Positions 12,065 through 55,961 of a stretch of DNA of 61,616 nucleotides are shown here, one piece after another. This stretch comes from an uncultured beta proteobacterium (lineage in GTDB: Bacteria > Pseudomonadota > Gammaproteobacteria > Burkholderiales > SG8-41), in NCBI GenBank assembly GCA_903913965.1, contig CAIWNB010000150.1, forward strand, positions 1 to 61,616, read 5' to 3'. Positions within the stretch are counted from its first letter, which is position 1. Every line of letters starts with the position of its first letter. The notes beneath the pieces are model-generated. The model did no database searches and was not told the DNA's origin. It was given only the letters and a program-made list of their open reading frames with translations. The translations under genes and the position numbers were made by a program.

Positions 12065-12065
12065 C

Positions 12066-13556
12066 CTACAGTCCGATCAATAGTTTGCGACCAGGGGTTG
12101 CCAATCGCAGGATTTCGTTGACCGATTCGTGCAACACCGCACCGAATGGCGCCGGGTACAACCCCATTAGAAGCACGAACAGTGCGAGCACTGCGAGGAT
12201 AAAAAATTCGCGTTTCGATATGTCACTTAACTGCTCGACATGGGGGTTGGCGATCTCACCAAAGATCACGCGTTTATACATCCAGAGGGTATAAGCCGCG
12301 CCAAAAATCAATGTGCTTGCAGCAAGCGCCGCATACCAGAAATTAACTTTCATGGTTGCGAGAATCACAAGCCATTCCCCGACAAAGCCGCTGGTGCCTG
12401 GAAGGCCGGCATTCGCCATTGCGAACAACATAAACATCGCTGCAAATACCGGCATCCTGTTAACCACGCCGCCGTAATCGGCAATCATGCGTGAATGCAT
12501 ACGATCGTACAGCACTCCCACGCATAGAAACATCGCCGCAGAGATGAAGCCGTGCGAAATCATCTGCAATATCGCACCTTCCATGCCCTGCGCACTGAAA
12601 ATGAAGACACCCAGGGTTACGAAGCCCATGTGAGAAATGGACGAATAGGCAATCAGTTTCTTCATGTCGGCCTGTACCAGCGCTACCAAACCAATGTATA
12701 CAACGCCGATCAACGACAGCACGATGACGAAACCCGCCAGCTCGTGGCTCGCGTCCGGCGCAATCGGCAGTGATAGCCGCAGAAAACCGTATCCACCAAG
12801 CTTCAACATGATCGCCGCCAGCACCACCGAACCGCCGGTAGGCGCTTCGACGTGCGCGTCGGGCAACCATGTATGAACCGGCCACATTGGCACCTTGACC
12901 GCAAACGCCAGCATGAATGCAGCGAATATTGCGATCTGTGCATTCAGCGGCAGCGGCAGATCGTAAAAGTGTAGCAGCGAGAAACTACCGCCCGCGGCGT
13001 TATAGAGATAAATCAATGCGACCAGGGACAGCAATGATCCCATCAGCGTGTAGAGGAAGAATTTAACCGCTGCATAAACCCGGTTGGGGCCGCCCCAGAC
13101 GCCGATGATAATAAACATCGGTATCAGCGTGGCCTCGAAATACACATAAAACAATAAGGCATCAAGTGCGCAAAACACGCCGTTCATCAATCCGGACAGA
13201 ATCAGGAAGGACGCCATGTATTGGGAAACGCGTTCCTTGATGACTTCCCAGCCCGCGATCACCACGATGACCGTCGTCACGCAGTTCAACAGAATCAAGA
13301 GCAGCGAAATGCCGTCTATACCCAGGTGGTAATTGACATTGAATGCGGCAATCCAGGGGGCGGACTCTACAAACTGAAAGTCCGAAGTGCCAGGGTCAAA
13401 GTGAGTCCACAGTGGTAATGCAACAAGTAATCCGGCAAAAGCGCCAAGCAGAGCAAGCACTCGCGCAGCACGTTGATTGTTGTCACCAACTGCGAGTACC
13501 GCAAGGCCAGCAAAAATCGGCGTCCAAATTACCAAGCTAAGCATGGGGAGATTCAT
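12066..13556 (-). CDS. nuoM: NADH-quinone oxidoreductase subunit M
   Basis: 496 aa with motif [17 protein letters not shown]. Position is between nuoL and nuoN. Confidence 0.92.
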
Positions 13557-13574
13557 TTAGTTATGTACGCCCGC

Positions 13575-15590
13575 TTAAAACGAGCTGCCCAACAATAAGG
13601 ACAGCAACAAAAGAATGCCAATAATCATGGCGAACGCATAATGATAAATATAGCCGGACTGAAACTGGCGTATGACGGTTGAAGCCCACCCGATCACCTT
13701 TGCCGAACCATTGACAAAAAAACCGTCAATAATGGCGATGTCGCCAATTCGCCAGAGTCCGCCACCAAGGCTGCGCGCTCCGCCTGAGAAAACCCAGCTA
13801 TAGAGACGATCAAGTCCGTATTTATCATCCAGTATACGCACGATGAATCCAAATTTTTGCCGCAGCACGGCGGGTAAATCAGGCTTGACGATATAGAGGT
13901 AAAAGGCGGTCCCCGCACCGGCCAACGCCAAGGCAAAGGGCAAGGTGGTGAAACTATGAATGATCATCGGAACAACGCCATGAAATTCCTCGGCAAGTTT
14001 CGCCATGCCCCCGTGATCGCTGCCGATGAATATTGAGCTGCCAAAATACTCCCCGAAGACTACGCTACCAATCAACCAGCCGGCGCATACAGACGGGATT
14101 GCAAGCAGAATGAGCGGTATGGTGACCACCAAAGGCGATTCATGAGGTACGCCGCCGTGCCCGTGCTCATCATGTGCCTGCTCGCCATGTGCATGGCCGT
14201 GGTCAGGATGTGTCTCGAATCGTTCTTTTCCATGGAATGCGAAGAAGACCAAGCGAAACGAGTAAAAACCACCGGCAAACACAGCGCCCAGCGCAGCAAC
14301 TAATGCAAAAGAAGCGCCCGGCACACCTGCCGCTTGCGCTGCATGAACGGCCTCGATAATGGTGTCCTTCGAGAAAAATCCGGCGAATGGCGGGAGGCCC
14401 GCATTGGCCCAGGCACCGATCAGCATCGTCACATAGGTGACCGGCAGATATTTCCTCAAGCCCCCCATCTTGCGCATGTCCTGCTCATGATGCATGGCGA
14501 TAATGACCGAGCCAGCCCCCAGGAACAGCACTGCCTTGAAAAATGCGTGGGTGACAAGATGAAACATGGCGGCAGAATATGCAGAAGCGCCAAGCGCCAT
14601 GGTCATATAGCCCAGCTGCGACAGAGTCGAATAGGCGACCACGCGCTTGATGTCAAACTGAGTCATCGCAATCAGCGCCATGAAAAAAGTGGTAATGGCA
14701 CCGATAACCAGCACAAATGACAAGGCTGTCTGCGACAACTCGAACAGGGGCGACATGCGAGCCACCATGAAAATACCCGCTGTTACCATGGTTGCTGCGT
14801 GGATCAGCGCTGAAATCGGGGTCGGGCCTTCCATCGAGTCGGGCAACCAGACATGGAGTGGAAACTGTGCGCTCTTACCCATCGCTCCGATAAACAAAAG
14901 GATGCAAGTCACGGTAATCAGAGACCATGCGTGGCCAGGGATGATTTCTATCGTGTTTCCGGCCAACGTCGAGGCTTGCTCGAAAACCTTGGCGTAATCC
15001 AAAGTGCCGAAGTACATCAGCACCAAGGCGATCCCGAGAAGAAAGCCGAAGTCACCGACACGGTTTACCATGAATGCCTTGAGGTTGGCGTAAATAGCCG
15101 TCGGTCGCGTATACCAGAACCCGATCAGCAGGTAGGAGACTAATCCCACTGCTTCCCAGCCGAAAAACAACTGAAGAAAGTTATTTGACATCACCAACAT
15201 CAGCATCGAGAAAGTGAACAGGGAGATATAACTGAAGAAGCGGTTATAGCCCGGGTCACCGTGCATGTAGCCGATTGTATAAATATGCACCATTAGCGAA
15301 ACAAAAGTGACGACCAGCATCATCGTCGCCGATAGCTGATCTATCAGGAAGCCAACCTCAAAGTGGGCAGATTCGCTTTCTAGCCACGTATACAAAGCGC
15401 CGTTGAAATAGTTGCCGTCGAGCACATCGCGAAACACCGCAACGGCGCCAGCAAACGAAACGAGCATCAGCAGGATGGTCAGCGAATGGGCTACACGGTT
15501 GCTGATTTTCCTGCACAGCAGACCCGACAAGAGAGCCCCTGCAAGCGGTGCCAGGGGGACCAAAAGATAGATTTTTTGCATCGACGTCAC
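13575..15590 (-). CDS. nuoL: NADH-quinone oxidoreductase subunit L
   Basis: 671 aa with motif HVWLPDSMEGPTPISALIHAATMVTAG and a long C-terminal extension. Start is GTG at 15590 or ATG at 15581. Confidence 0.92.
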   Translation of the reverse strand: MTSMQKIYLLVPLAPLAGALLSGLLCRKISNRVAHSLTILLMLVSFAGAVAVFRDVLDGNYFNGALYTWLESESAHFEVGFLIDQLSATMMLVVTFVSLMVHIYTIGYMHGDPGYNRFFSYISLFTFSMLMLVMSNNFLQLFFGWEAVGLVSYLLIGFWYTRPTAIYANLKAFMVNRVGDFGFLLGIALVLMYFGTLDYAKVFEQASTLAGNTIEIIPGHAWSLITVTCILLFIGAMGKSAQFPLHVWLPDSMEGPTPISALIHAATMVTAGIFMVARMSPLFELSQTALSFVLVIGAITTFFMALIAMTQFDIKRVVAYSTLSQLGYMTMALGASAYSAAMFHLVTHAFFKAVLFLGAGSVIIAMHHEQDMRKMGGLRKYLPVTYVTMLIGAWANAGLPPFAGFFSKDTIIEAVHAAQAAGVPGASFALVAALGAVFAGGFYSFRLVFFAFHGKERFETHPDHGHAHGEQAHDEHGHGGVPHESPLVVTIPLILLAIPSVCAGWLIGSVVFGEYFGSSIFIGSDHGGMAKLAEEFHGVVPMIIHSFTTLPFALALAGAGTAFYLYIVKPDLPAVLRQKFGFIVRILDDKYGLDRLYSWVFSGGARSLGGGLWRIGDIAIIDGFFVNGSAKVIGWASTVIRQFQSGYIYHYAFAMIIGILLLLSLLLGSSF

Positions 15591-15594
15591 GACA

Positions 15595-15906
15595 TCAGCC
15601 TTTCAGACTGTCGAGGTCTTCGACGTCGATCGTCTGCAGATTGCGGAAAAGTACGACCAGAATCGCCAGGCCAATGGCCGATTCAGCGGCCGCGACCGTA
15701 AGAATAAAAAACACAAATATCTGCCCGGCAGGATCGCCGAGATAATGCGAAAAGGCGACAAAGTTCATGTTCACTGCAAGCAACATTAACTCGATCGCCA
15801 TCAGCAAAATGATGACGTTCCGGCGGTTCAGAAATATTCCAACCACGCTGATCGCGAAAAGGATCGCGCCCAACACCAGATAATGCTGCAATGAAACCAA
15901 TCGCAT
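15595..15906 (-). CDS. nuoK: NADH-quinone oxidoreductase subunit K
   Basis: ATG at 15906 ([17 protein letters not shown]...). Three-TM protein of ~100 aa. Confidence 0.9.
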
Positions 15907-15996
15907 CCCCTCTTCGCTCAATAACTTAAGCTAACGCGCATCGTGCAATCACGCCAAAGTTCCATAAACCGATAAATCGCCCGGAGAATCCTTGGC

Positions 15997-16599
15997 TCAA
16001 TCCTGACCAGTGTCAGCGGGCATGCTCACCATTCGTACACGATCCTCGCGTCGTACCTTGACCTGCATTGCAGGATCAACGTACTTGTTCAACTTGCGCT
16101 TACGCAGCGTTAACGCGATCGCCGCAACGATAGCCACCAACAGAATGACCGCTGCGATTTCAAATGGATACACATATTCCGTGTAGAGCAAACGCCCAAG
16201 CTCCCTCGTGTTGCTGTAATGAGCGGGTAATACCGGTGCCTCGAGCGCGTTGCGCGAATAAAATCCCCATAAAACCGCGCCCATTTCCAATGCCAAAAGT
16301 ATGCCGACGACCGCGCCCAGAGGCATATAACTCCAGAACCCTTCGCGCATTTTGGTCAGATTAATGTCAAGCATCATGACCACGAATAGGAACAAAACCA
16401 TAACAGCCCCTACGTAAACAAGCACCAGGGTAATCGCCAGAAACTCGGCCTGTAACTGTATCCACAAGCCAGCTGAGGTAAAAAATGCCAACACTAGCAG
16501 TAGTGCCGAATGTACCGGGTTACGCGAAGTGATCACGCCACATGCTGCAACAACCAGCACCAGCGAAAATGCGTAGAAGAGGAAGTCTTGAAATGTCAT
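15997..16599 (-). CDS. nuoJ: NADH-quinone oxidoreductase subunit J
   Basis: 200-aa membrane protein in the nuoJ position. Confidence 0.88.
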   Translation of the reverse strand: MTFQDFLFYAFSLVLVVAACGVITSRNPVHSALLLVLAFFTSAGLWIQLQAEFLAITLVLVYVGAVMVLFLFVVMMLDINLTKMREGFWSYMPLGAVVGILLALEMGAVLWGFYSRNALEAPVLPAHYSNTRELGRLLYTEYVYPFEIAAVILLVAIVAAIALTLRKRKLNKYVDPAMQVKVRREDRVRMVSMPADTGQD

Positions 16600-16619
16600 G
16601 GCGGTTTCAGTTCGGCCTT

Positions 16620-17111
16620 TTACCGGTACGGCGCGTCGGCAGCGCGATCTTTTGCAATCTGGTCTTCATACATATCGCCGATCGCAAGCAGCATGGGTTT
16701 GGTGTAGATCAAGTCACCGCGTTTTTCACCATGATATTCGAGCACACGGGTCTCGACTATCGAGTCTACCGGGCATGATTCTTCACAAAAACCGCAGAAG
16801 ATGCATTTGGTCAAATCGATATCGTAGCGGGTAGTACGGCGCGTACCGTCATCGCGTTGTTCGGATTCAATCGATATCGCTAGAGCCGGACAGACTGCTT
16901 CGCAAAGTTTGCATGCGATACAACGCTCTTCGCCATTCGGGTAGCGGCGCAGTGCGTGTAAGCCCCTGAACCTCGGCGACTGCGGCGTTTTCTCTTCAGG
17001 AAACTGCACGGTAATCTTGCGCCGAAACAGATGCCTGCCGGTCATCATCAGGCCCTTGACCAGTTCAAACAGAAGGAAGGTGCGAAAAAAATCGAGGATA
17101 CGGGTGATCAT
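16620..17111 (-). CDS. nuoI: NADH-quinone oxidoreductase subunit I
   Basis: ATG at 17111. Has two 4Fe-4S ferredoxin motifs, [12 protein letters not shown] and [12 protein letters not shown]. Confidence 0.92.
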
Positions 17112-17115
17112 TGTC

Positions 17116-18273
17116 TTATCTCCACCATATCCATAGCGGCGTCTGCGTCCAAATACCCACAACTATGATCCAAACAATGGTGATTGGTATAAAAACCTTC
17201 CAGCCCAAGCGCATGATCTGGTCATATCGATAGCGCGGAAATGTTGCGCGGAACCAAAGAAAGCTCGATACCACAAGGAATAGTTTTATAAACAACCAGC
17301 CAAAACAACCCGCTGCCAACCACGGCATTCCGAGCGCAGTAGCATACGCCAGGGGAATCGGTGACAACCATCCACCGAGGAACATGATGGAACACAGCGT
17401 CGACACCAGGATCATGTTCGCGTATTCCGCAAGGAAGAAGACCGCAAAAGTCATACCCGAGTATTCAACGTGGAAACCAGCGACGATTTCTGATTCACCC
17501 TCAGCGACGTCGAACGGCGCGCGGTTGGTTTCCGCGACCCCTGCGATCAGATAAACCAGAAATAGCGGAAAAAGTGGAATCAAGTACCAGTTGAAAATTC
17601 CGTAGTTACCGCTCTGCCCATTGACGATATCGACAAGGTTGAGGCTTTGCGAAGCCATTAGGACGCCGACCAACGCAAAGCCCATGGCAATTTCGTAGGA
17701 TACGATTTGAGCGGCAGAACGTAGGGCTCCGAGAAATGCATATTTGGAATTGGAGGCCCAACCGGCAATGATGATGCCGTAGACACCCATCGAAGTAATG
17801 GCCATAACATAAAGAAGCCCTGCGTCAATATTGGCAAGAACCACTTCAGGCCCAAACGGGATAACCGCCCAAGCTGCCAAGGCTGGCATCAACGCCATTA
17901 CTGGTGCAAGAACGAACAAAAATTTGTTGGCCCCCGTTGGAACAATGATTTCTTTGAGCAGCAGTTTCAGGCCGTCGGCAATGGGCTGTGCCAGTCCACC
18001 CAACCAGCTGATACCGAAGAAGGTCACCCGGTTTGGCCCGATCCGTATCTGCATCCAGCCTATCAGCTTGCGCTCCCACAACGTTAGGTAAGCAACGCTC
18101 AACAATAGGGGTACAACAATACAAACGATCAGTGCGATGGTTTTGAGTAGCAGCAAGAGGGAATCAAGTACTTGCGGCGCGGATTCCTGGCCGACAACCC
18201 ACACGACGGCAGCTGCCACAAACCCCCAGAGCCATGCGCCCAAGGAAATTACGGGTTGAAGAAGTGCGCTCAC
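17116..18273 (-). CDS. nuoH: NADH-quinone oxidoreductase subunit H
   Basis: Has motif [19 protein letters not shown]. The GTG start overlaps the nuoG stop (GTGA). Confidence 0.92.
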
Positions 18274-20621
18274 ACCGCCACCTTTTGTTCAGTCACCACA
18301 GGCTCCAGACTCACGCTGCCAAATAGTCCGCCAAGTACAGCAGTTGCCTCATGCCCACCGGGGATCCGGATACAGTGCGCCGGCAACTTGTCGTCTTTCT
18401 TCACGCTCACAACAACCACACCGGAACCCTGTGAAATTTTGAGGCTGTCGCCATCATTTATTCCAAGGCGCGTGAGATCCATGCCGTTCATGGTTGCGAG
18501 CGGTGGTGCACCGACCGCCGATTTTTGTAACGCAGCGGCACGGCGCACGATGGCGTCCGCCTGATAAGGGGCGACTTCGCCGATGCGTTCCATCACGATC
18601 GTGTCACCCCCAATATGTGCCACCGGGGCAGCGCGAAGGCTATTATCCAGACGGCTGAGCACATTACCGTCACCGATGGCGTCGCGACGGACCGCTTCGC
18701 TGCTGTCATAATCAAATCCCGGCAGACCCGCGAGGTTCCCAAGGACACGAAGCACTTTCCACGCAGGCCTGGTCTCTGCGAGCGGCAGCACAATTCCATT
18801 AAAGCTTTGCACACGCCCTTCAGTGCTAATAAATGTTCCAGAGGTCTCGGAAAAAGGCGCGATCGGCAATAACGCGTTCGCATATTCCAAAGCCTGGTGC
18901 TGGTATGGGGATAAGGCCACTACGAATTCGGCCTCTTTCATCGCCGCTAAGGCCTGTGCAGCATCATACGAGTCGCACTCAGGCTCGACTCCCAGCAATA
19001 AATAGGCTTTGAGCGTTTTTTCCAGCATCTGCCGCGCGTTTAGGCCTGACCGAGGCGTAGCTTCAGCAAGGTAACCACCGACACTGTTTGCAGCCTCCCC
19101 GAGGAAGCCAAATTTAGCGCCGAGTAACCCTGCCAGTTGTTCTGCCAGCCAGTGCAAGCGCCCCGCTGAAGGGTGATGCTGCGCCAGGTTCCCCAGCCAG
19201 ACCACCGAGTTGCCAGCAACTGCCATACTGCTCGCGATGGCAAGAGCCGCCGCATCGACTGCCACCACCGGAACATCTGCCGGCAACGGGGCGCCCTTAA
19301 TCTGGGCTACAGCGTTGATCACCGCTGCGAGTGCGCCGGCCATTCCTGACGGCGCGACGATCGATTTCGCAGCGACCCGCATCAACAAATCGTCATCAAC
19401 CGGATTGATCAGGTTGAGTTCCAGTTTTTTCTTTGCAGCCTGTCGCAGACGCAGAGCCAGCAACGGGTGATCGTTACGCAATGAGCTGCCAATCACCAAG
19501 ACACGATCAAGCGAGGCGATTTCAGCGACCGGCATGCCCAGCCAGGGGGCGCCCGAGGCAACTGCATCAGCTGAAAAATCTGATTGGCGAGTACGGAAAT
19601 CTATATTCTCTGAACCAAGGCCGCGCACCAGTTTTTGCAGCAAGTAGAGCTCTTCGACCGTCTGATGCGCACTGCCAAGGGCGCCAATTTGGTTGGCACC
19701 ATGCCGTTCACGCACTGCGAGCAATCCTTTGGCGACGAAATCGAGCGCGACCTGCCAATCGACTTCTTCCCACTTGCCGTCCTGCTTGATCATTGGCTTG
19801 ACCAGACGGCTGGAGGCGTTCAATCCTTCGTAGGCGAAGCGGTCCTTGTCAGACAGCCAGCATTCGTTGATATCGTCATTCTCACGTGGCAACACCCGCA
19901 TGACGCGGTTTTGCTTGATCTGAACCGTCGTATTTGCGCCAAGACCGCAATGCGGGCTGATCGATGGACGACGGTTCAATTCCCAAGTGCGCGCACTGTA
20001 GCGGAATGGCTTAGACGTCAATGCACCTACCGGGCAAAGATCGATCACGTTACCGGACAGTTCCGAGTCAACCGTCTTGCCAACGAACGCGATAATTTCG
20101 GAATGTTCTCCGCGGCCGATCATGCCAAGCTCCATCACACCCGCTATTTCCTGGCCAAACCGAACACAACGCGTGCAATGAATACAGCGCGTCATATCAG
20201 TCGAAATCAGCGGGCCAAGGTCCTTGTTACCGACGATGCGTTTGGGTTCGTCGTATCGCGACGCACTGCCGCCATACCCGACTGCCAGGTCCTGCAATCT
20301 GCATTCCCCCCCCTGGTCACAGATCGGACAGTCGAGGGGATGATTGACCAGCAGAAACTCCATCACGCCCTTTTGAGCGTTGATGGCCTGCTCGGAATGG
20401 GTTTGCACCTTCATGCCGTTGGTCACCGGCGTCGCACAAGCGGGCAGCGGTTTGGGTGCCTTCTCGACCTGGACAAGACACATTCGACAGTTCGCGGCAA
20501 TCGACAGTTTTTCGTGATAGCAGAAATGAGGCACATAAATGCCCGCCTGCTGGGCTGCATCCATTACGGTGCTGCCGTCAGCAACTTCCAGTTTGTGGCC
20601 GTCTATTTCGATTTCGAGCAT
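18270..20621 (-). CDS. nuoG: NADH-quinone oxidoreductase subunit G
   Basis: ATG at 20621 ([13 protein letters not shown]). Has an N-terminal 2Fe-2S region ([17 protein letters not shown]), the 4Fe-4S motif [10 protein letters not shown] and a molybdopterin-like domain. Confidence 0.92.
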
Positions 20622-20632
20622 GGCGTTCCGCG

Positions 20633-21946
20633 TCAGATATATTCCGGCACCAGGCACTTCTTGTGCTCGATGTGGTACATGAATTCATCGCGATAATGTT
20701 TCAGGAATGCACGCACCGGCATCGCAGCGGCATCGCCAAGAGCGCAAATGGTCCTGCCCTGAATGTTTTCAGCGACCTGATTAAGCTTGTCTAGATCCTC
20801 GGGCTTACCTTTACCGTGTTCAATGCGATCAACCATGCGGTAAAGCCAGCCAGTACCTTCACGACAGGGCGTGCACTGGCCACAAGATTCTTCGTAGTAA
20901 AAATAGGATAGCCTCAATAGGCTCTTTACCATACAACGGGTTTCGTTCATCACAATCACCGCACCGGAGCCCAGCATCGAGCCTGCTTTGGCAATCGAGT
21001 CATAGTCCATATCTGTTGCCATCATGATATCCGCTGGCAAAACGGGCATCGACGAACCACCTGGAATAACCGCTTTTAGTTTGATGCCTTCGCGCATGCC
21101 GCCGGCCATCTCCAGCAGCTTTGGAAAAGGGGTGCCCAATTGAATCTCATAATTTCCTGGGCGCGCCACATCACCTGACACCGAAAAAATCTTTGTGCCG
21201 CCGTTATTCGGCTTGCCGAGCGCGAGAAATGCATCTGCACCGTTTCTGATAATCCACGGTACCGCAGCAAACGTTTCGGTATTGTTAATCGTGGTTGGCT
21301 TGCCATAAAGGCCAAAGCTTGCCGGGAAAGGCGGCTTAAAGCGTGGCTGCCCCTTTTTACCCTCAAGAGATTCCAGCAGTGCCGTTTCTTCTCCGCAAAT
21401 ATACGCGCCCCAACCGTGGTGGTTATAGAGCTGAAAATTGAAACCGCTGCCGATAATGTTGTCACCGAGGAGACCTGCCGCGCGCGCCTCGTCTACCGCA
21501 GCCTCGATACGTTCGAAAGCGGCCCAGATTTCTCCATGCACGTAGTTGTACCCTACAGCGGTGCCAGTGGCGTAACCAGCAATCGCCATCCCTTCGATCA
21601 AGGCATGCGGGTTGTAGCGAAGAATATCGCGGTCTTTGAACGTACCAGGCTCACCCTCATCCGAATTACAGACCAGGTATTTTGCACCGGCGAACTGACG
21701 CGGCATGAAACTCCACTTCAATCCGGTTGGGAAACCCGCGCCACCGCGACCACGCAAAGCCGACTTTTTGACATCGGCGATTACCTGCTCAGGTGGGGTT
21801 TTTTCCGCCAGTATCTTTCTCAGCGCTGCATAACCGCCACGCGCCTCGTAATCCTTGAGACTCCAGTTCTCCCCATTGATGCCTTTCATAATCACGGCAT
21901 CGGGTCCAAACTGATCAACAGCAAATGGTGGAACGGGCAAACCCAT
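20633..21946 (-). CDS. nuoF: NADH-quinone oxidoreductase subunit F
   Basis: ATG at 21946 overlaps the nuoE stop by 1 nt. Has FMN/NADH motifs [13 protein letters not shown] and the 4Fe-4S motif [12 protein letters not shown]. Confidence 0.92.
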
Positions 21947-22434
21947 TACTTGAGCTCCTCGATCAGCTTGTCGAGTTTGTCCGCGGTCATCGCGCACAAC
22001 ATATGTTTGTTATTCCGAATCAACACGGGTGCATCACCACAAGCCCCCATGCATTCAGATTCTTTAAGCGTAAACGCACCGTCAGCGGTCGTCTCACCGA
22101 ATCCGATGCCGAGCTTGGACTTCAGGTGCTGTGCAGCCACATTGGCTCCCAGCAATGCGCATGGCAAATTCGTGCATATGGACAGTTTGCAACGCCCAAC
22201 CGGCTTGAGGTCGTACATCGTATAAAAACTCGCCACCTCGTAGACGGCGATCGGCGGCATGCCAAGGTAGGAAGCAACGCAGTCCATCGTCTCATGCGAC
22301 AGCCAGCCCTTCTCATCCTGCGCGATAGTTAATGCAGCCATCACCGCCGATTGTTTTTGATCAGCTGGATACTTGGCAATCGCCTTGTCAATTTTAATCA
22401 ACGATTCGGGGCTGAGAAGCATCGGCGCACTCAT
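21946..22434 (-). CDS. nuoE: NADH-quinone oxidoreductase subunit E
   Basis: 162 aa with thioredoxin-like 2Fe-2S motifs (ICTNLPC...[10 protein letters not shown]). Confidence 0.92.
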
Positions 22435-23684
22435 CTATCAATTTCTCCGAACACAATCTCAATGGTTCCTATGATGGCAACAACGTCTGCAATCATATGC
22501 CCGCGCGACAACTCATCAATGGCCGAAAGATGGGTAAAGCTTGGCGACCGTATCTTCATACGGTAAGGTTTATTTGCACCGTCGGACATCATATAAATTC
22601 CGAATTCGCCCTTAGGGTGCTCGATGCCTGCATAAGCCTCCCCCTCGGGCACATGCATCCCCTCGGTGAAAAGCTTGAAGTGGTGGATCAGCTCTTCCAT
22701 ATTCGATTTCATCGCCAAGCGCGAGGGCGGCCCGACCTTGTGGTCGTCGGTCATCACCGGCCCCGGATTCTTGCGCAGCCATTCAACACACTGCTTCACA
22801 ATCCGGTTCGCCTGCCGCATTTCTTCAATACGCACGAGATAACGGTCATAGCAGTCGCCATTAACCCCGACCGGAATATCAAAATCCATCCGGTCATACA
22901 CCTCGTAGGGCTGGTTCTTGCGCAAATCCCAGGCGATCCCCGAGCCGCGCAACATCGGGCCTGTGAAGCCCATCGCGTACGCTCTTTCCGGAGAAACCAC
23001 ACCAATGCCTACTGTGCGCTGCTTCCAAATGCGGTTATCTGTCAACAAAGTTTCATATTCGTCGACACACTTCGGAAACCGGTCAACAAAATCCTCGATA
23101 AAATCGAGCACCGAACCCTGCCGGTTAGCATTTAGGTCGCGCGTTGCGCGCTCATTATGTATCCTCGTCGCGGTGTATTGCGGCATGGTATCGGGCAAAT
23201 CGCGATAAACGCCGCCCGGCCGGTAGTACGCCGCGTGCATCCGGGCTCCAGAAACCGCCTCATAGACATCAAACAGGTCTTCGCGCTCGCGGAAGCAATA
23301 CAAAAACATCGTCATGGCGCCCAGATCCAGACCATGACACCCCAGACCCAGCAGGTGCGCAAGAATACGGGTGATCTCATCAAACATCACGCGGATATAT
23401 TGAGCGCGCAGAGGCACCTGTATGCCCAGAAGTTTTTCAATCGCCAGCACGTAGGCATGCTCATTGCACATCATGGTGCAATAATCCAGACGGTCCATAT
23501 ATGGCACCGACTGCAGGAAGGTCCGATGCTCGGCCAGCTTTTCCGTCGCGCGATGCAGCAACCCGATATGCGGGTCGGCACGCACAATCGTTTCCCCGTC
23601 CAACTCCAGCACCAGACGCAAAACGCCGTGAGCAGCAGGATGTTGCGGCCCAAAATTCATTGTGTAATTGCGGATATCAGCCAT
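22431..23684 (-). CDS. nuoD: NADH-quinone oxidoreductase subunit D
   Basis: 417 aa. N-terminal [19 protein letters not shown] overlap with nuoE. Confidence 0.93.
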
Positions 23685-23686
23685 GC

Positions 23687-24301
23687 TTAACCCTTGCGGA
23701 ACCCTGCGCCACCGGCGTAGTTCTCTTCGCGAACGATACGCGGCGTGATCTCTCTGGGATCGATAGTGACCGGCTGGTATATGACACGGCGCTGATCTGG
23801 GTCGTAGCGCATTTCGACATGCCCCGATATCGGAAAATCCTTGCGAAACGGATGCCCGATGAAGCCGTAGTCGGTCAAGATTCGTCGTAGATCTGGGTGA
23901 CCGTTAAAGAGGATGCCAAAGAGATCGAATGCTTCTCGCTCAAACCAGTTCGCAGCAGACCACACCCCCACCACCGTGTCCACCATTGGCATATCATCGT
24001 CTGGCGCAAAAACCCGGACACGCAACCTGCGGTTCTTGCTGACGCTTAGCAAATGGTAAACTACCGCATAGCGGGCACCATCCCACCTGCCATCACCATA
24101 GGTCTTGTAATCAAGACCACAAACATCGATGACCTGCTCGAACATCAAGTCTGGCGCATCGCGCAACACTAACATCGATTCGACCAACCCCTCAGCCTTG
24201 AGGGTTACGGTGACCTCTCCGAGAGCATCAACCACGCCGACAACACGCTCACCAAGAAGGTCATTGACGCGGGCAGCGAGAATTTCGGTACGGGCTGTCA
24301 T
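23687..24301 (-). CDS. nuoC: NADH-quinone oxidoreductase subunit C
   Basis: 204-aa 30-kDa subunit pattern ([23 protein letters not shown]), between nuoB and nuoD. Confidence 0.9.
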
Positions 24302-24784
24302 TTATCGCGCAATCGTATTGGTACGTTTGATTTTGTTTTGCAACTGGATAATCCCGTAGAGCAGCGCCTCGGCCGTCGGCGGACATCCCGGTACGTATAT
24401 ATCTACCGGAACGATGCGATCACAGCCGCGGACAACGGAATAGGAATAATGGTAATAACCACCGCCGTTAGCGCAGGAACCCATGGAGATCACCCAGCGC
24501 GGCTCAGCCATTTGGTCGTAAACCTTGCGCAGGGCTGGCGCCATCTTGTTGCAAAGAGTGCCGGCAACAATCATTACGTCGGATTGGCGTGGACTGGGGC
24601 GGAACACGATACCAAAACGGTCCAGATCGTAGCGCGAAGCGCCTGCGTGCATCATTTCAATCGCGCAACAGGCAAGGCCGAAGGTTACCGGCCACATTGA
24701 ACCTGTGCGAGTCCAGTTGATGAGCGTATCAACTGTTGTAGTCAGGTAACCCTGCTCCATTAACGCCGCGTCATTCGCGCCCAT
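24302..24784 (-). CDS. nuoB: NADH-quinone oxidoreductase subunit B
   Basis: ATG at 24784 (TTG at 24787 is possible). Has N2-cluster motifs [20 protein letters not shown] and VPGCPP. Confidence 0.92.
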
Positions 24785-24797
24785 CAAAACCCCGTCT

Positions 24798-24838
24798 CAA
24801 CGTGCAGCATCCTGTTTAACTTAGCTGCAATGTGCAGC
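24798..24838. repeat. direct repeat CAA[C/T]GTGCAGC x2, 30 bp apart; second copy inside palindrome GCTGCAATGTGCAGC
   Basis: Copies are at 24798-24808 and 24828-24838. The 6-bp inverted repeat GCTGCA/TGCAGC is at 24824-24838. A looser third copy CAAAGTGCAGG is at 24986-24996. Confidence 0.4.
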
Positions 24839-24902
24839 CTACTTCCGCCCGTAAGCTTTATCACCAGATTACACCCGTAAACGGGCCATAAAACAGCCTG
24901 CG

Positions 24903-24932
24903 ATTTTACCCTCGCTCAGCGTCCAGGGTCAA
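24903..24932 (-). promoter_or_regulatory. candidate sigma70 promoter for nuoB-N (TTGACC-N18-TAAAAT)
   Basis: The minus strand has TTGACC (24932..24927), an 18-nt spacer, and TAAAAT (24908..24903). It lies inside the 239-bp gap between the UbiE-like gene and nuoB. Confidence 0.35.
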
Positions 24933-25023
24933 CGCAGAACATTGCGCTGTATCAAATGCTTGGACATCCAGGGCATTGCAACACCCAAAGTGCAGGCGCC
25001 ACCGATTTTCCTGCATCTCTCAG

Positions 25024-25776
25024 CTACTTCTTTGCGGCGCGATGGCAGCCTATCATGCCGGCAAAAACCGACTTCGCTGAAACATCACAAAAACCCAAGT
25101 CTCTCAACAGCTCGGCCAATTCGTCGGCCGAATAGAACATCTCAAGTGCATTTATGAAATACTTTTTGCAATTGAGCGCCGACTCATCACTGCGAAAAAG
25201 AAAGCCGGTAAATGCCAAGCACATCCGCAGGTAAGCGTAATAGAGCTTTTCAACCACCGGATTGGCCGGCCGCAGCATGTCACAATGGTAAAAATGCCCT
25301 CCCGGCTTTAGCACTCTGAGTATCTCGCTGAAGACGGTACGCACACGCAAATGACGCGAGGCAAACTGCAGCGTAACAACATCAAAGTGATTGTCAGGAA
25401 AAGGCAGTTTATGCACGTCACCGATAACGCTATGAATATGGAAGCCTCGGTCAACCGCGCGCTGCCTGCCAACCGCCTGCATCTCCGCGCTGCGGTCAAT
25501 GGCATGCACCTCAAGCGTGGGCTCGCGGCGCAACAAGGCGATCCCGATCGCGTTAGTCCCGGCGCAAACATCGAGGGTCCTTTGTCCGGGGCGAAGCTCG
25601 ATCACCGACATGAAGGCCTGAAGAAAACGATTCCACAATCCCAGGCTGGCGACATAATTCGCCCTGTCATAATAAGGCGCAACGTCAGCAAATACCCTAT
25701 TTAACTCCTTGGTCCAAACGACATTGAAACGTTCTTCACGCAGTTGTTCACGAACGGCGACTGGTGGGGGGCTCAT
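25024..25776 (-). CDS. UbiE/MenG-family methyltransferase-fold protein with degenerate SAM motif I; candidate rhodoquinone biosynthesis protein (RquA-like)
   Basis: 250 aa. It is collinear by eye with E. coli UbiE (YDRANYVASLGLW.., LPFPDNHFDVVTLQFASRHL, VLKPGGHFY). Motif I reads LDVCAGTNAIG where UbiE has LDLAGGTGDL. It lies immediately downstream of frdABCD. The CDS and family call are high confidence. The RquA assignment is an inference (about 0.5). Confidence 0.85.
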   Translation of the reverse strand: MSPPPVAVREQLREERFNVVWTKELNRVFADVAPYYDRANYVASLGLWNRFLQAFMSVIELRPGQRTLDVCAGTNAIGIALLRREPTLEVHAIDRSAEMQAVGRQRAVDRGFHIHSVIGDVHKLPFPDNHFDVVTLQFASRHLRVRTVFSEILRVLKPGGHFYHCDMLRPANPVVEKLYYAYLRMCLAFTGFLFRSDESALNCKKYFINALEMFYSADELAELLRDLGFCDVSAKSVFAGMIGCHRAAKK

Positions 25777-25866
25777 GACTGAAGTGATCTCCTCAAAGTT
25801 GAATCAAACCGCAAATTACCTATATTTTTTCTGCTTACATAAAAACAGTGCCTGGAACACACCTTC

Positions 25867-26208
25867 CTAGAAAGACCAAAGACTCGCCGCCGCCCACAGA
25901 CTCGCCAGAATCGCCACGCCATAAACAACCGTAGCAACTGCCGAGTCCGCACGCACACCAAAATCATAAAAAGTAATACGCAAACGATGCGCCGCACTCC
26001 AAAGCACTAGGAAAATCACAACCGTAAAAGCTGCCTTGTAGACGCTATGGGACAAAAACATGCGCAAACGGTCGTATGCCAGAATGTCCGGCAGATGCCC
26101 TGTCGCGGCAAGCAGGGTCATGACTATCATGACGGGAATTAAAAACGCACTGACGGTTCCGCCTGCAGCGAATGGCCCCCAAACCAGCGGTTTGTTCGAT
26201 ATCGCCAT
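25867..26208 (-). CDS. frdD: fumarate reductase membrane anchor subunit D
   Basis: ATG at 26208, 2 nt after the frdC stop. PLVWGPFAAGGTVSAFLIPVMIV aligns with E. coli FrdD [24 protein letters not shown]. Three TM segments. Confidence 0.85.
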   Translation of the reverse strand: MAISNKPLVWGPFAAGGTVSAFLIPVMIVMTLLAATGHLPDILAYDRLRMFLSHSVYKAAFTVVIFLVLWSAAHRLRITFYDFGVRADSAVATVVYGVAILASLWAAASLWSF

Positions 26209-26210
26209 GA

Positions 26211-26603
26211 TCAATGCACCCCTGCAAAAACCAGAATGGCCACAGACAGCACAAACCACACCCCGTAATGCAAACCCGCCACAAACCAGCCAGGCATAAA
26301 ACTCTCCCCCACCTGCAACGGCAGCGCCTTAGGCGTGAGGTTGAACCAGGTAACACTGTGATAAACCGAGAACACCAAAGCCAGCATTTGAAAAACGATC
26401 ATGGACGGACTCTTGAGGGAGTCAAGAAACAGCTGGTATCCCGCCTCGCTCTCTGCGAGACGCGCCAGCCCGACCACCACCAACAAGGCGTACGCCCCAA
26501 CAAACAAACAGGTCAATTCCCGCACCATATAGCGCAAATAACGCGGATGATCGAAAAACCAACTGACTTTTGGCACTTCGCGGACAAACGGATTACGGCT
26601 CAT
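26211..26603 (-). CDS. frdC: fumarate reductase membrane anchor subunit C
   Basis: ATG at 26603 forms an ATGA overlap with the frdB stop. The N-terminus MSRNPFVREVPKVSWFFDHPRYLRYMVRE parallels E. coli FrdC [27 protein letters not shown]. Confidence 0.85.
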   Translation of the reverse strand: MSRNPFVREVPKVSWFFDHPRYLRYMVRELTCLFVGAYALLVVVGLARLAESEAGYQLFLDSLKSPSMIVFQMLALVFSVYHSVTWFNLTPKALPLQVGESFMPGWFVAGLHYGVWFVLSVAILVFAGVH

Positions 26604-27343
26604 TTTTTCACCCACGGCATCAGATGTTCCGTATACCAATCAACCGTACTGGCAATCTTCACCTGCTGCAGCGCGCTGGCCGGATCAACGTGCTCAGGAC
26701 AGACCTCCGAACAGGCGCCGGCAAAAGAGCACTCCCACACACCTTCGCCAGAGGCTATTTCCTGCTGACGCTCTTTGCGCCCGCCGTCCCTTGAATCAAG
26801 GTTGTAGCGATGGGCCATCGAAATCGCCGCGGGGCCTATGAATTTTGGCGTCAAACCATACTCCGGACACGCCGCGTAACAGAGCATGCAGTTTATGCAA
26901 AGCGTGTATTGCTTGAATTTCTTGAGTTCAGCTGGTGTTTGCCTGTATTCCCCCTCGCCGACCGGCTTTTCGTCCTTGGGAATCAGGTAAGGCTTGACGC
27001 GCTTGAATTTCGTCATGAAATCATCGATCACCGTGACGAGATCCCGCTCAATCGGGAAGTGCGCCAGGGGTTCGACGCGGATCACTCCCTGGTAGTTACG
27101 CAGAAATGATTTGCAGGCGAGTTTCGGCTCGCCATTGATCATCATTCCACAACTACCGCACACCGCCATGTGACAGGACCAGCGATAGTTCAACGTCGGG
27201 TCGATGGTTTCCTTGACATGGTTCAGCGCGTCGAGAACTACCCACTCCTCCTCGCACGTCACCAAGTAGCGCTGAAAATGCGGCTCCGTTTCCGTCTCCG
27301 GGTTATAGCGCAGGACTTCCAGCTCAATCACGCGCTCGCTCAT
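26600..27343 (-). CDS. frdB: fumarate reductase iron-sulfur subunit
   Basis: 247 aa with three cluster motifs: CHMAVCGSCGMMING, CINCMLCYAACP and CSFAGACSEVCP. ATGA overlap with frdA. Confidence 0.92.
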   Translation of the reverse strand: MSERVIELEVLRYNPETETEPHFQRYLVTCEEEWVVLDALNHVKETIDPTLNYRWSCHMAVCGSCGMMINGEPKLACKSFLRNYQGVIRVEPLAHFPIERDLVTVIDDFMTKFKRVKPYLIPKDEKPVGEGEYRQTPAELKKFKQYTLCINCMLCYAACPEYGLTPKFIGPAAISMAHRYNLDSRDGGRKERQQEIASGEGVWECSFAGACSEVCPEHVDPASALQQVKIASTVDWYTEHLMPWVKK

Positions 27344-29103
27344 TTGTGATCTCCCGAATAATCACGCACACCGGGCTGTGATTTGGTAATCACCACATCA
27401 CGATAATCAACGCGCGGAGGTTCATGCGAACGGAAGTAAGCCAGCGAATGCCGCAGGAATTTGCCGTCGTCACGCTCGACAAAATCCAGACGCTGGTGAG
27501 CACCACGGGATTCAGTTCGCGCCAACGCGCTCACGGTCACCGCCTCCGCACAATCCAGCATCGAACCGAGCTCGAGCGCCTGCAGGAGGTCAGTGTTGTA
27601 GACGTTAGTGCGGTCGGTCAACCCCACATCGAGATAGCGCCGCCGCAACTGGGATAATATGGCACAGGCAGCTTTGAGGCCCTCTTCCTCCCTATAGATG
27701 CCCGCATTTTCTTCCATTGTGCGCATCATCTCGCGACGCAAACCAGCAAGCGACTCACCACCGTCCGCCTTCTCAAACAAACCGCGTATGCGCCCCTGCG
27801 CAGCCGCGGCCTGAGCAGACAGCGCAACTTCGTTTACCGATGGTTTTCCGGAATTGATAAATTCAATTGCACTCAATGCGGCACGCCTGCCGAACACAAG
27901 CAGCTCAGTCAACGAATTCGAGCCGAGCCGGTTGGCTCCGTTGATACTCACACAAGCACACTCGCCCGCCGCATACAGGCCGGGAAGACTGGTCGCCGCG
28001 TCGATATCCGTATCAATGCCGCCCATCATGTAATGCACGACGGGTCGTACCGGTACCGGATCCTTGACCGGATCCACTCCGAGGTAACTAATCGACATGT
28101 CGCGCACTAAAGGCAAACGTTCGTCGATCTTTTTCTCACCAAGATGGCGCAGGTCAAGCAACATGCAATCACCATATTTGGTCGGCAACATGTTGCCTTT
28201 TTTCTGCTCATGCCAGAACGCCTGGCTGACGCGGTCACGCGGCCCCAATTCCATCGTCTTTAACTGCGGTTTGCCAACCGGCGTTTCAGGCCCCATACCG
28301 TAATCCTGCAAAAACCGGCGCGAATTCCGGTTCAGCAAAATCCCGCCCTCACCCCGGCACGCCTCGGTCAGCAAGGTGCCGGTGTTTGGCAATCCCGTCG
28401 GGTGATATTGGACAAACTCCATATCCTTCAGCGCAACGCCAGCGCGGTAGGCGAGGGCCATGCCGTCACCGGTCTTAATCGCCCCATTGGTAGTAAACGG
28501 AAACATACGCCCTGCACCGCCACCCGCAATGATGACGGCACGCGCCTCGAATCGGCGCATTTGTCCGCTACGCATTTCAATCGCCGTAAAGCCCTGGCAG
28601 CGACCGTCATCAACGATAAGATCCGTTGCATAGTATTCGTCGTAACGCTCAATCGACGGAAATTTAAGCGAGGTTTGAAACAGCGTATGCAATATGTGAA
28701 AGCCGGACTTGTCCGCGGCAAACCAGGTACGTTGCTTTTGCATTCCGCCAAACGGCCGCACCGCTACTGAGCCATCCGGCTCTCGGCTCCAGGGGCAGCC
28801 CCAATGTTCAAGCTGTAACAGCTCTTTGGGTGCCTCTCTTACGAGATAATCGACCGCATCCTGGTCGCACAGCCAGTCACCGCCACCGACCGTATCGTTA
28901 AAGTGGTGCTCCAGACTGTCATCAGGTTTGATCACCCCAGCCGCCCCGCCCTCGGCCGCACAGGTGTGACTGCGCATTGGATAAACCTTGGAGATCAGGC
29001 TGATCTTAAGCAGTGGGTCCGTTTCCGCCAGTGCTATGGCTGCGCGCAAACCAGCGCCGCCCGCGCCTATGATAGCCACGTCGCTACGGATGATTTCCAT
29101 CAT
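27340..29103 (-). CDS. frdA: fumarate reductase flavoprotein subunit
   Basis: ATG at 29103/29100 preceded by GGAGG. Has VAIIGAGGAGLRAA, HPTGLPNTGTLLTEACRGEGGILLN and LQDYGMGPETP...MELGPRD. Close collinearity with E. coli FrdA rather than SdhA. Confidence 0.92.
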   Translation of the reverse strand: MMEIIRSDVAIIGAGGAGLRAAIALAETDPLLKISLISKVYPMRSHTCAAEGGAAGVIKPDDSLEHHFNDTVGGGDWLCDQDAVDYLVREAPKELLQLEHWGCPWSREPDGSVAVRPFGGMQKQRTWFAADKSGFHILHTLFQTSLKFPSIERYDEYYATDLIVDDGRCQGFTAIEMRSGQMRRFEARAVIIAGGGAGRMFPFTTNGAIKTGDGMALAYRAGVALKDMEFVQYHPTGLPNTGTLLTEACRGEGGILLNRNSRRFLQDYGMGPETPVGKPQLKTMELGPRDRVSQAFWHEQKKGNMLPTKYGDCMLLDLRHLGEKKIDERLPLVRDMSISYLGVDPVKDPVPVRPVVHYMMGGIDTDIDAATSLPGLYAAGECACVSINGANRLGSNSLTELLVFGRRAALSAIEFINSGKPSVNEVALSAQAAAAQGRIRGLFEKADGGESLAGLRREMMRTMEENAGIYREEEGLKAACAILSQLRRRYLDVGLTDRTNVYNTDLLQALELGSMLDCAEAVTVSALARTESRGAHQRLDFVERDDGKFLRHSLAYFRSHEPPRVDYRDVVITKSQPGVRDYSGDHK

Positions 29104-29188
29104 GCACCTCCAGCGGCGCACGACAAGCGCGGCCACATGAATCGGGCAAAGAAAAATAACCGGGAAAGAACAACCAGAAAACCAACCA

Positions 29189-29209
29189 CGCCGGGCATTG
29201 CACCCGGCG
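29189..29209 (-). terminator. GC-rich hairpin with T-rich tail 21 nt after nuoA stop (terminator/attenuator-like)
   Basis: The minus strand reads CGCCGGG-TGCAATG-CCCGGCG (7-bp stem, 7-nt loop). It is followed by TGGTTGGTTTTCTGGTTGTTCTTT...TTATTTTTCTTT. Confidence 0.4.
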
Positions 29210-29229
29210 CCAGACAACGGCCTAGACCG

Positions 29230-29598
29230 TCACTCCCACTCGAGAGCGCCTTTTTTCCACTCGTAGGCGAAGCCGACGACCAGAATACCCAAGAACACAA
29301 CCATGGCCCAGAAGCCGAATGCACCGATCTCCCGCAATACAATCGCCCACGGAAAGAGGAAGGCGATTTCAAGATCAAACAGTATGAAAAGAATAGCGAC
29401 AAGATAGTAACGCACGTCGAACCTCATACGTGCGTCTTCGAAAGCCTCGAACCCACATTCGTAGGGCGATAACTTTTCGCTGTTCGGTCGGTGTACGCCG
29501 AGCAACCTGCCCACCGCACCACCAAGGATAATCGGCGCCAACCCCACCACGGCACCGACCAGGATAAACAGGAGAATCGGAAAATAATTGGCTAGCAT
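29230..29598 (-). CDS. nuoA: NADH-quinone oxidoreductase subunit A
   Basis: ATG at 29598 (TTG at 29604 is possible). Three TM segments, with [35 protein letters not shown]. Confidence 0.92.
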
Positions 29599-29728
29599 GA
29601 GCAAACTGGCCCGTCCGAGTTGAAATGTTGGTGGCGAGTTTCCGCCGATTTGTAACCATAACCGCAGGATGTTCCATCAAAATCTAAGTAACGATGGTTC
29701 ATTCTGAACCAGCAAACGTTACCACCAC

Positions 29729-29742
29729 TTGATCTTGATCAA
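29729..29742. promoter_or_regulatory. perfect FNR/CRP-family box TTGAT-N4-ATCAA upstream of nuoA
   Basis: The sequence TTGATCTTGATCAA is a palindromic consensus. On the minus strand a CAGAAT hexamer (29706..29701) lies 22 nt downstream of the box. Assuming transcription starts 7 nt downstream of that hexamer (about 29694), the box centre falls at -41.5. Confidence 0.6.
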
Positions 29743-29762: not shown

Positions 29763-29847
29763 TGGTGCCGGCGGAGAGACTCGAACTCTCACGACTTTCG
29801 TCACCGCCCCCTCAAGACGGCGTGTCTACCAATTCCACCACGTCGGC
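29763..29847 (-). tRNA. tRNA-Leu (anticodon GAG)
   Basis: The reverse complement reads GCCGACGTGGTGGAATTGGTAGACACGCCGTCTTGAGGGGGCGGTGACGAAAGTCGTGAGAGTTCGAGTCTCTCCGCCGGCACCA. It has a 7-bp acceptor stem (one A-C mismatch) and an anticodon stem CCGTC/GGCGG with loop TTGAGGG. It also has a long variable arm, a T-loop TTCGAGT and a 3' CCA. Confidence 0.9.
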
Positions 29848-47899: not shown

Positions 47900-47993
47900 T
47901 GTTCCGATCGCCCACGCGGGGCAGATAAAATCCCGCCGCGGCAACGCCTCTTCGTTGTCGCCGTTCCAAATCCAACCGACACCGGACTCAGCT

Positions 47994-55745: not shown

Positions 55746-55961
55746 AATGGTTGCCGTTAATGTTATTGCGCAAGAGCGCGATACGATCAAGGGTAGTGCA
55801 GGCCCAGTAGCCGGTCAAGCACACAGGTCAAGCGCAATTGTTGCGATTACGGCAGGCGATTGCGGCAGGCCTTAGCCTAGACTAGGATAAGCGCGGCCCG
55901 AACTGCCGAAAATCTCAAGCCTGTGCCGATCAATGCGACCAAATGCGGATAACTTCACTCG

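Follow-up and report, generated by a model that had tools for sequence, protein, structure and literature searches.

A fumarate reductase operon and a divergent UbiE-family gene lie between nuoA and nuoB in an uncultured betaproteobacterium: a possible NADH-to-fumarate chain at the 5' end of the complex I operon

In a stretch of 61,616 nucleotides (nt) from an uncultured betaproteobacterium (assembly GCA_903913965.1, contig CAIWNB010000150.1), analysed whole and hereafter called the window (61.6 kb), the usual contiguity of the complex I genes nuoA and nuoB is broken by a 4.4 kb insert. The insert carries a fumarate reductase operon, frdABCD, and a gene of the UbiE family between frdD and nuoB, for which we use our own label, MT. 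The order on the minus strand, where all features described below lie unless stated otherwise, is tpiA, secG, tRNA-Leu(GAG), nuoA, frdABCD, MT, nuoB and nuoC-N. Gene identities come from NCBIfam and Pfam profiles. The only nuoA detected within the window (29230-29604) matches PF00507 at 139 bits over profile positions 6-99 of 99, and nuoB (24302-24784) matches NF005012 at 272 bits and keeps all four cysteines of the N2 cluster (C39, C40, C104 and C134). With the low substitution ratios given below, these matches agree with an earlier note on this DNA in which both genes had been taken to be intact. Downstream, nuoC-nuoN are contiguous (10616-24301) and complete a 14-subunit complex I: subunits A to M are recognised by hidden Markov models (HMMs; Pfam matches for nuoC to nuoM), whilst nuoN (10616-12064), an open reading frame (ORF) of 482 amino acids (aa), is named by its expected position only.

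The fumarate reductase genes are assigned with similar clarity. Both frdA (flavoprotein subunit, 27340-29103; NF006686, 934 bits against a cut-off of 854) and frdB (iron-sulfur subunit, 26600-27343; NF009051, 361 against 333) exceed their equivalog cut-offs, as does the membrane anchor gene frdD (25867-26208; NF003977, 67 against 60; PF02313, 86 bits); the other anchor gene, frdC (26211-26603), passes Pfam only (PF02300, 118 bits), with an NCBIfam score of 81 against a cut-off of 143. FrdA has the RSHT motif for covalent flavin adenine dinucleotide, FrdB has its cluster cysteines (Cys 57, 62, 65, 77, 149, 152, 155, 159, 205, 211 and 215), and FrdC has Glu29. Together with the equivalog scores, these residues uphold the E. 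coli-type FrdABCD assignment of the earlier note, and from this family membership we infer haem-free anchors and the reduction of fumarate with a low-potential quinol. The same note had given the gene order from nuoA through frdABCD and a UbiE-like gene to nuoB-N, which the profiles confirm, and a tight coupling of the frd genes, which can be read directly at their junctions: frdA/frdB and frdB/frdC share ATGA overlaps, and frdC and frdD are 2 nt apart (TGA-TC-ATG). The outer junctions are loose, at 126 nt for nuoA-frdA, 90 nt for frdD-MT and 236-239 nt for MT-nuoB.

This arrangement is real, old and under purifying selection. A protein identical to that of MT occurs on 17 contigs, and the six places listed for it are six different samples, all with the order frdD-MT-nuoB. 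The longest such contig (L081, 17 kb) reads folP-glmM-tpiA-secG-nuoA-frdABCD-MT-nuoB and onwards to nuoH, thus holding the order complete, and an 89%-identical relative shows frdABCD-MT-nuoB and following genes in two further samples. Measured against relatives, synonymous divergence (dS) is saturated and nonsynonymous divergence (dN) low; their ratio (dN/dS) is 0.045-0.08 for nuoA, 0.05-0.125 for frdA-D and 0.015-0.027 for nuoB; for MT, dN is 0.086 and dS is saturated. The guanine-plus-cytosine (GC) content of the insert is 0.53-0.57, and its GC at third codon positions (GC3) and codon usage agree with those of the nuo genes; the correlation of relative synonymous codon usage between insert and nuo (r = 0.89) is close to that between two halves of nuo (0.93). 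Recurrence on 17 contigs, low dN and matching composition therefore exclude an assembly error, which the earlier note had named as one finding that would undo its reading, as well as pseudogenisation and recent transfer. Indeed, it is because the composition of the insert equals that of its flanks that we call the arrangement old and reject recent horizontal transfer of the insert.

The identity of MT (25024-25776; PF01209, 127 bits) is central to what this locus could do. By its sequence, this class I S-adenosylmethionine (SAM)-dependent enzyme is neither a canonical UbiE nor a canonical RquA, and belongs to a large, unnamed, UbiE-derived clade. It falls below every curated UbiE/MenG cut-off (143 against 158.35 for TIGR01934; 99-131 against 216-378 for the PRK00216 equivalogs). 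Its motif I is DVCAGTNA, within a clade consensus of DVCAGTN[A/D], where neighbouring families have D[LV]xxGTGD, such that the third glycine has become Asn across the clade (Ser or Met in a few members); clade members carry HxDxLRP (HCDMLRP in MT) where UbiE has LEFSxP, and they have an N-terminal extension. The acidic residues at SAM-binding positions are kept. Searching the PDB by sequence returned only generic class I methyltransferases and Coq5, the latter (4obw) as a full-length match (E = 9e-12) in which a conserved Arg and Tyr align with the catalytic R141 and Y36 of Coq5. A word index gave 3619 homologues, nearly all from uncultured Beta- and Gammaproteobacteria, and NCBI labels for the clade are only "class I SAM-dependent methyltransferase" or generic UbiE names. 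Among 1.84 billion cluster representatives, full-length clade members are 37-60% identical to MT, and the nearest neighbours outside the clade are UbiE/MenG proteins at 30-36% identity.

RquA, the enzyme that makes rhodoquinone, is the obvious comparison, and the hallmark reported for all RquA is that positions 3 and 7 of motif I are Gln and Val (PMC7813818, citing Lonjers 2012 and Stairs 2018). No protein with such a motif is found among the best 150 cluster representatives, all of which are MT-clade or UbiE/MenG proteins. Nor did RquA emerge from a tblastn search against plasmids (only UbiE/MenG and generic methyltransferases), from a regular-expression scan for Gln/Val motif I methyltransferases over 1.46 Mb of fetched loci (nothing relevant), or from a protein search seeded with the gammaproteobacterial member L059 (no match named RquA). 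One Azospirillum candidate for RquA, L089, was rejected, having a normal VLDVAIGTG motif. The earlier note had spoken of a quinone-tailoring enzyme; MT is a candidate for such a role that misses the curated UbiE/MenG cut-offs and lacks the RquA motif.

Of 71 species-level loci of the clade, 30 have MT adjacent to frdABCD, to the tpiA-secG-nuoA junction or to both, and the arrangements number at least seven: frdABCD-MT-Y (Y being a gene described below) upstream of tpiA, the same module divergent from tpiA, MT-Y between secG and nuoA, MT-(Y)-frdABCD between secG and nuoA, MT-(Y) between nuoA and nuoB, frdABCD-MT alone and, as the seventh, the nuoA-frdABCD-MT-nuoB order of the window. In methanotroph-type Gammaproteobacteria, including Crenothrix sp. 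D3 (L018:5747-10756) and metagenome-assembled genomes (MAGs) of Methylococcaceae, MT comes right after genes for a multihaem cytochrome, a porin of the MtrB/PioB type and a 241-aa membrane protein with a CxxCH motif. Also noted were L010, L015, L028 and L050 and, set apart from these, L043, L044, L067 and L090; further loci have multihaem-cytochrome or cytochrome b clusters next to MT, as in L090, where the cluster is of multihaem cytochrome/cytochrome b. These settings suggest that the clade is linked to extracellular or alternative electron transfer, and the common factor of the MT neighbourhoods is quinol-dependent, non-oxygen respiration. The contexts of the most divergent members (P0123 and P0130) were uninformative. 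As a separate observation, the Sulfuritalea MAG JALNYT01 holds two clade paralogues (L025 and L027), one in frdABCD-MT-Y and the other alone near genes for a major facilitator superfamily (MFS) transporter and PAS/GGDEF/EAL signalling proteins.

Directly downstream of MT in 36 of the fetched loci (for example L001:1441-2097 and L002:9658-10350) is Y, an all-helical protein of ~213 aa that is likely to be a functional partner of MT. It matches no Pfam family, and its AlphaFold2 model (predicted local distance difference test score, pLDDT, 87) found no match with E < 0.5 when compared with the PDB by Foldseek. An apparent MT-Y fusion of 501 aa, P0165, reads as low-quality sequence with a frame shift, and no argument is built on it.

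Directly downstream of the tRNA-Leu(GAG) gene (29763-29847, called by ARAGORN), a perfect FNR/CRP-family box, TTGATCAAGATCAA, lies at 29729-29742, its centre ~131 nt upstream of the nuoA start; a perfect TTGAT-N4-ATCAA match occurs just once in the window, and it is this one, between tRNA-Leu and nuoA. Exactly 22 nt downstream of the box is a -10-like hexamer, CAGAAT (29701-29706). In the class II FNR layout, a TTGAT-N4-ATCAA box is centred near -41.5, ~22 nt upstream of the -10 hexamer, and the sequence ahead of nuoA conforms to it, with a predicted box centre near -41.5. The box is kept at the same place in L001, L002 and L081, and in L001 and L002 the box, the 22-nt spacing and CAGAAT are all retained although the spacer bases differ. 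Across the family, 19 of 68 evaluable loci have an FNR-type box (at most one mismatch) in the 200 nt ahead of the module's first gene, where site density predicts 1.2; for loci that begin with frdA or nuoA, the figure is 16 of 23. Whichever gene leads, the box precedes it: in the split lineage this gene is nuoA, in loci of the Sulfuritalea type and others it is frdA, and in L014, L021 and L041 it is MT. No fnr gene was seen within the window. These boxes, and the at least seven arrangements in 30 of 71 loci, speak for the functional joining of complex I, fumarate reductase and a UbiE-like enzyme that the earlier note had proposed.

A second signal lies in the MT-nuoB spacer, where a promoter scan picked out a sigma-70-type promoter-like site, TTGACC-18-TAAAAT (24903-24932; 10 of 12 positions). 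Its -35 and -10 hexamers are kept in the window, L084, L001, L016 and L023 whilst the flanks diverge, giving a five-lineage pattern of TTGACC-N17/18-TA(A/G/C)AAT. In the nuoA-frdA spacer, a terminator scan found a GC-rich hairpin of 10 pairs followed by the T-rich GGTTGGTTTTCTGGTT (29188-29210); its stem is present in both the minimum-free-energy fold and the centroid, is seen otherwise only in the near-identical L081, and could possibly act as a partial terminator or attenuator. The conserved site ahead of nuoB and the hairpin past nuoA lead us to predict at least two promoters, P(FNR) for nuoA-frdABCD-MT and P(sigma-70) for nuoB-N, with read-through possible at both ends of the module. The one transcription unit of the earlier note is at best partly right, given the predicted internal nuoB promoter and the hairpin after nuoA. 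Just upstream of the nuoB-promoter -35, a further element, GCAAGCATTTGATaCAGCGCAA (24940-24962), is kept in the window, L084 and L001; it holds an FNR-like TTGAT half-site and may be a regulator binding site. A scan of the whole window at Rfam gathering thresholds returned no family, hence no known riboswitch or leader in the spacers; that scan missed even the tRNA, although ARAGORN calls it.

How widespread, then, is the split itself? Only a small group of uncultured Betaproteobacteria shows it, and several of the closest relatives are groundwater MAGs. Among metagenome contigs with a NuoA 72-84% identical to that of the window, 63 of the 64 evaluable have a normal nuoA-nuoB junction and one has nuoA-MT-nuoB. 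In species-representative genomes, nuoA-MT-(Y)-nuoB occurs in four (L001, L002, L016 and L023) and the frd-containing form in none.

Two of these genomes preserve traces of its origin. In unsplit relatives (alignment of L004, L005, L007 and L011), nuoA begins immediately past tRNA-Leu. In L001, L002 and L016, MT follows nuoA by 4-23 nt and is itself followed by Y; in L023, MT also lies past nuoA, and Y was not detected. The Y-nuoB spacer of L002 (10642-10855) contains a decayed second nuoA, covering codons ~53-124 (tblastn E ~1e-12) at 64-69% DNA identity to nuoA genes and preceded by the conserved nuoB promoter element, and L001 retains a 62-nt remnant of the same fragment (2184-2245). A decayed nuoA just upstream of nuoB shows that the split arose by duplication of nuoA around the MT-Y module, with decay and loss of the nuoB-proximal copy, and not by simple insertion. 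In our reading, frdABCD later entered between nuoA and MT in the lineage of the window, and Y was lost from the locus. When aligned with the region ahead of nuoA in unsplit relatives, the nuoB-upstream promoter showed no detectable homology.

Taking these observations together, we give roughly even odds (a probability of about 0.5) to the reading that the 5' end of the complex I operon houses an NADH-to-fumarate respiratory chain, induced under anaerobic conditions, with MT tailoring the quinone. At low oxygen, the class II FNR-type promoter upstream of nuoA would drive nuoA-frdABCD-MT, whilst nuoB-N would be served by its own sigma-70-type promoter in the MT-nuoB spacer, with read-through from upstream perhaps adding to it; nuoA might also be reached by read-through from secG-tRNA-Leu. 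MT, judging by its gene neighbourhoods, would turn a benzoquinone of the ubiquinone pathway into a carrier of lower potential, to be reduced by complex I and oxidised by FrdABCD, and would thereby play the role held elsewhere by RquA and rhodoquinone. Its product could be rhodoquinone or another quinone.

Several points weigh against this picture. MT has Asp and Gly where RquA is reported to have Gln and Val, in a comparison made at the level of the published motif. The Arg, the Tyr and the acidic residues are kept, and MT may on that account be just an ordinary C-methyltransferase. The two promoters and the hairpin are predicted from consensus or conservation. If nuoA, of which one copy was detected in the window, depended on an FNR promoter only, this would be awkward for an aerobic complex I, for which we have to assume read-through from secG-tRNA-Leu. 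Y is missing at the locus and in the whole window; it is also absent in L084/L085, and therefore need not be encoded at the locus. Lastly, the scope is one window of 61.6 kb, and any further nuoA, or a canonical ubiE, an rquA, men genes or fnr, elsewhere in the genome would escape notice.

The idea of encoding complex I, a quinone enzyme and fumarate reductase together is already on record. Stairs et al. (2018, PMC5953543) reported that rquA often has genes of complex I, II or III no more than 15 genes away, and proposed that they are linked in operons. Their Supplementary file 1 lists frdABCD-rquA for Betaproteobacteria bacterium RIFCSPLOWO2_02_FULL_67_26, rquA two genes from frdABCD in Candidatus Accumulibacter, and frd-rquA-START-nuoA-nuoB in Novispirillum itersonii and Rhodospirillaceae bacterium BRH_c57. 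In the literature searched, we found no description of a module between nuoA and nuoB or of a history of nuoA duplication and decay, none of an FNR box ahead of nuoA with an internal nuoB-N promoter, and none of an MT clade distinct from RquA with a partner gene of its own. The earlier note had left it undecided whether this architecture had been described: the concept of joint encoding has been, and the nuoA|nuoB split was not found in the literature searched.

Considering these precedents, perhaps MT is simply a divergent, true RquA orthologue, and the locus an ordinary rhodoquinone/frd/complex I cluster apart from its gene order. We regard this as improbable, though it deserves a hearing: the frdABCD-methyltransferase order is that of RIFCSPLOWO2_02_FULL_67_26, and rquA is near frdABCD in Accumulibacter; those betaproteobacterial RquA proteins also match Pfam Ubie_methyltran; motif I is altered in RquA and MT alike; and a "potential rquA" has been reported from a nematode symbiont of the Gammaproteobacteria that also has frdABCD (PMC8269255), whilst certain gammaproteobacterial loci of the family (L057, L059 and L064) bear isolate names which may perhaps point to symbionts of marine invertebrates. 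Against it stand the Asp/Gly of MT at the two diagnostic positions, the lack of any Gln/Val-motif protein among the best 150 cluster representatives, and NCBI names for clade members that say just "class I SAM-dependent methyltransferase". Moreover, RquA reportedly works without a partner (PMC9814641), whereas MT is often accompanied by Y. A weaker point is that two clade members from 2016 Rifle MAGs, OGA23539 and OGA39442, are missing from the part of the Stairs table covered here, although a sibling MAG is in it. An equally improbable alternative, to our mind, is that MT is a second UbiE/MenG-type isozyme, serving anaerobic ubiquinone synthesis or menaquinone genes located elsewhere, in which case there would be no new quinone and the adjacency to frd would reflect co-regulation only. 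The top family matches are indeed UbiE/MenG (TIGR01934, 143 bits), the full-length Coq5 match (4obw) aligns the conserved Arg and Tyr, the Joint Genome Institute annotates clade members as demethylmenaquinone methyltransferase, and for Sulfuritalea hydrogenivorans, from a genus with MAGs that carry the clade, the HMM survey of Chobert et al. counts three UbiE proteins but not one RquA. However, MT scores under all curated cut-offs, the motif I glycine and LEFSxP are replaced clade-wide, and neither men nor mqn genes turned up in the window, where nearly all ORFs of at least 120 aa were scanned and the content is otherwise housekeeping. Thermodynamically, ubiquinol cannot drive fumarate reduction, and a plain UbiE copy would therefore leave the repeated linkage to frdABCD unexplained.

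It could also be argued that the insertion has no meaning, tpiA-secG-nuoA being a permissive integration spot where frd and MT landed by chance. The arrangements do vary widely between lineages, as repeated hot-spot rearrangement would produce, 41 of the 71 MT loci lie away from both frd and nuo, and 63 of 64 evaluable contigs with a related nuoA keep the normal junction. Yet at least seven independent arrangements unite the same three components, the FNR boxes track the first gene of the module whichever it is, only 4-23 nt separate nuoA from MT in relatives, and the same association is known for rquA, from an unrelated clade; we consider chance very improbable. Beyond the chain encoded at this locus, we more tentatively posit, at rather less than even odds, that the MT clade, often with Y, is a second, independently evolved UbiE-derived route to a low-potential respiratory quinone in Beta- and Gammaproteobacteria of the ubiquinone type, recruited to frd and complex I in Betaproteobacteria and to multihaem-cytochrome/porin conduits in methanotroph-type Gammaproteobacteria, with nuoA captured into an FNR unit here. 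Such a route might yield rhodoquinone through an enzyme other than RquA, or an undescribed quinone.

The implications reach beyond this one locus. The type of quinone decides which electron acceptors a bacterium can use, and we know of no way other than RquA-made rhodoquinone for ubiquinone-only Proteobacteria to respire fumarate. The locus points to a large, unnamed UbiE-like clade whose members number thousands in metagenomes from groundwater, lakes, sediments and other environments. The clade fills the genomic niche of rquA without the RquA signature, and present surveys count its genes as extra UbiE copies or generic methyltransferases. If the clade does make a low-potential quinone, genome-based predictions of anaerobic respiration would change for many uncultured Beta- and Gammaproteobacteria. 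The split operon is, in addition, a compact natural example of one subunit gene, nuoA, moved under a regulatory signal other than that of the remaining complex I genes, with traces of the move still visible in a decayed duplicate copy and a retained internal promoter.

The remainder of the window is a housekeeping chromosomal region (folP, glmM, ftsH, greA, carAB, dapB, fur, recN, hemH and grpE-dnaK-dnaJ), with a few features of separate interest. The hemH ORF (47646-49088, plus strand, 480 aa) matches HemH only from residue 132 onwards, and either has an N-terminal extension of ~130 aa or has its true start internally. Genes at 3574-6299 (minus strand) encode the large and [2Fe-2S] subunits of a molybdopterin oxidoreductase of the xanthine dehydrogenase/aldehyde oxidase family, all below equivalog cut-offs, and a gene for an XdhC-like maturation factor (54729-55790, minus strand) lies ~48 kb away. 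A 668-aa ORF (276-2282, minus strand) belongs to the fused MFS/spermidine synthase family, above the cut-off of NF037959.

Among known systems, E. coli frdABCD is a type D quinol:fumarate reductase activated by FNR, and the likenesses are these: four subunits with two small anchors, FrdA, FrdB and FrdD passing their equivalog cut-offs, Glu29 in FrdC, and an FNR-type box tied to the operon in relatives of the window. Here, however, the box is upstream of nuoA and not of frdA, FrdC is below its NCBIfam cut-off, and the host is a betaproteobacterium with no menaquinone genes seen in the window. With UbiE, MenG and Coq5, MT shares the fold, full-length similarity (30% identity to E. coli UbiE), the SAM-site acidic residues and the conserved Arg and Tyr; it departs from UbiE in having GTN[A/D] for GTGD, HxDxLRP for LEFSxP and an N-terminal extension, and in a genomic setting of respiratory modules instead of ubiE-ubiJ-ubiB. 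The nqo/nuo operons of Paracoccus denitrificans and Rhodobacter capsulatus contain interspersed small ORFs of unknown function, and so likewise tolerate extra reading frames inside a complex I operon, whereas the insert described here comprises an entire second respiratory enzyme and a quinone-pathway-like enzyme, flanked by separate predicted promoters. The nearest parallel remains the rquA/frdABCD/nuo clusters, in which a UbiE-related class I SAM-dependent enzyme also stands beside an E. coli-type frdABCD and nuoA-N, and for which the predicted physiology is shared: complex I would reduce a low-potential quinone and fumarate reductase would oxidise its quinol form. In those clusters the module is upstream of nuoA, whereas here it lies between nuoA and nuoB; the MT clade has a DVCAGTNA motif I and not one of the Gln/Val type; many of its members come with the partner gene Y, for which RquA has no known counterpart; and in the window it is nuoA that follows the FNR box, placing a complex I subunit at the head of a putative anaerobic unit.

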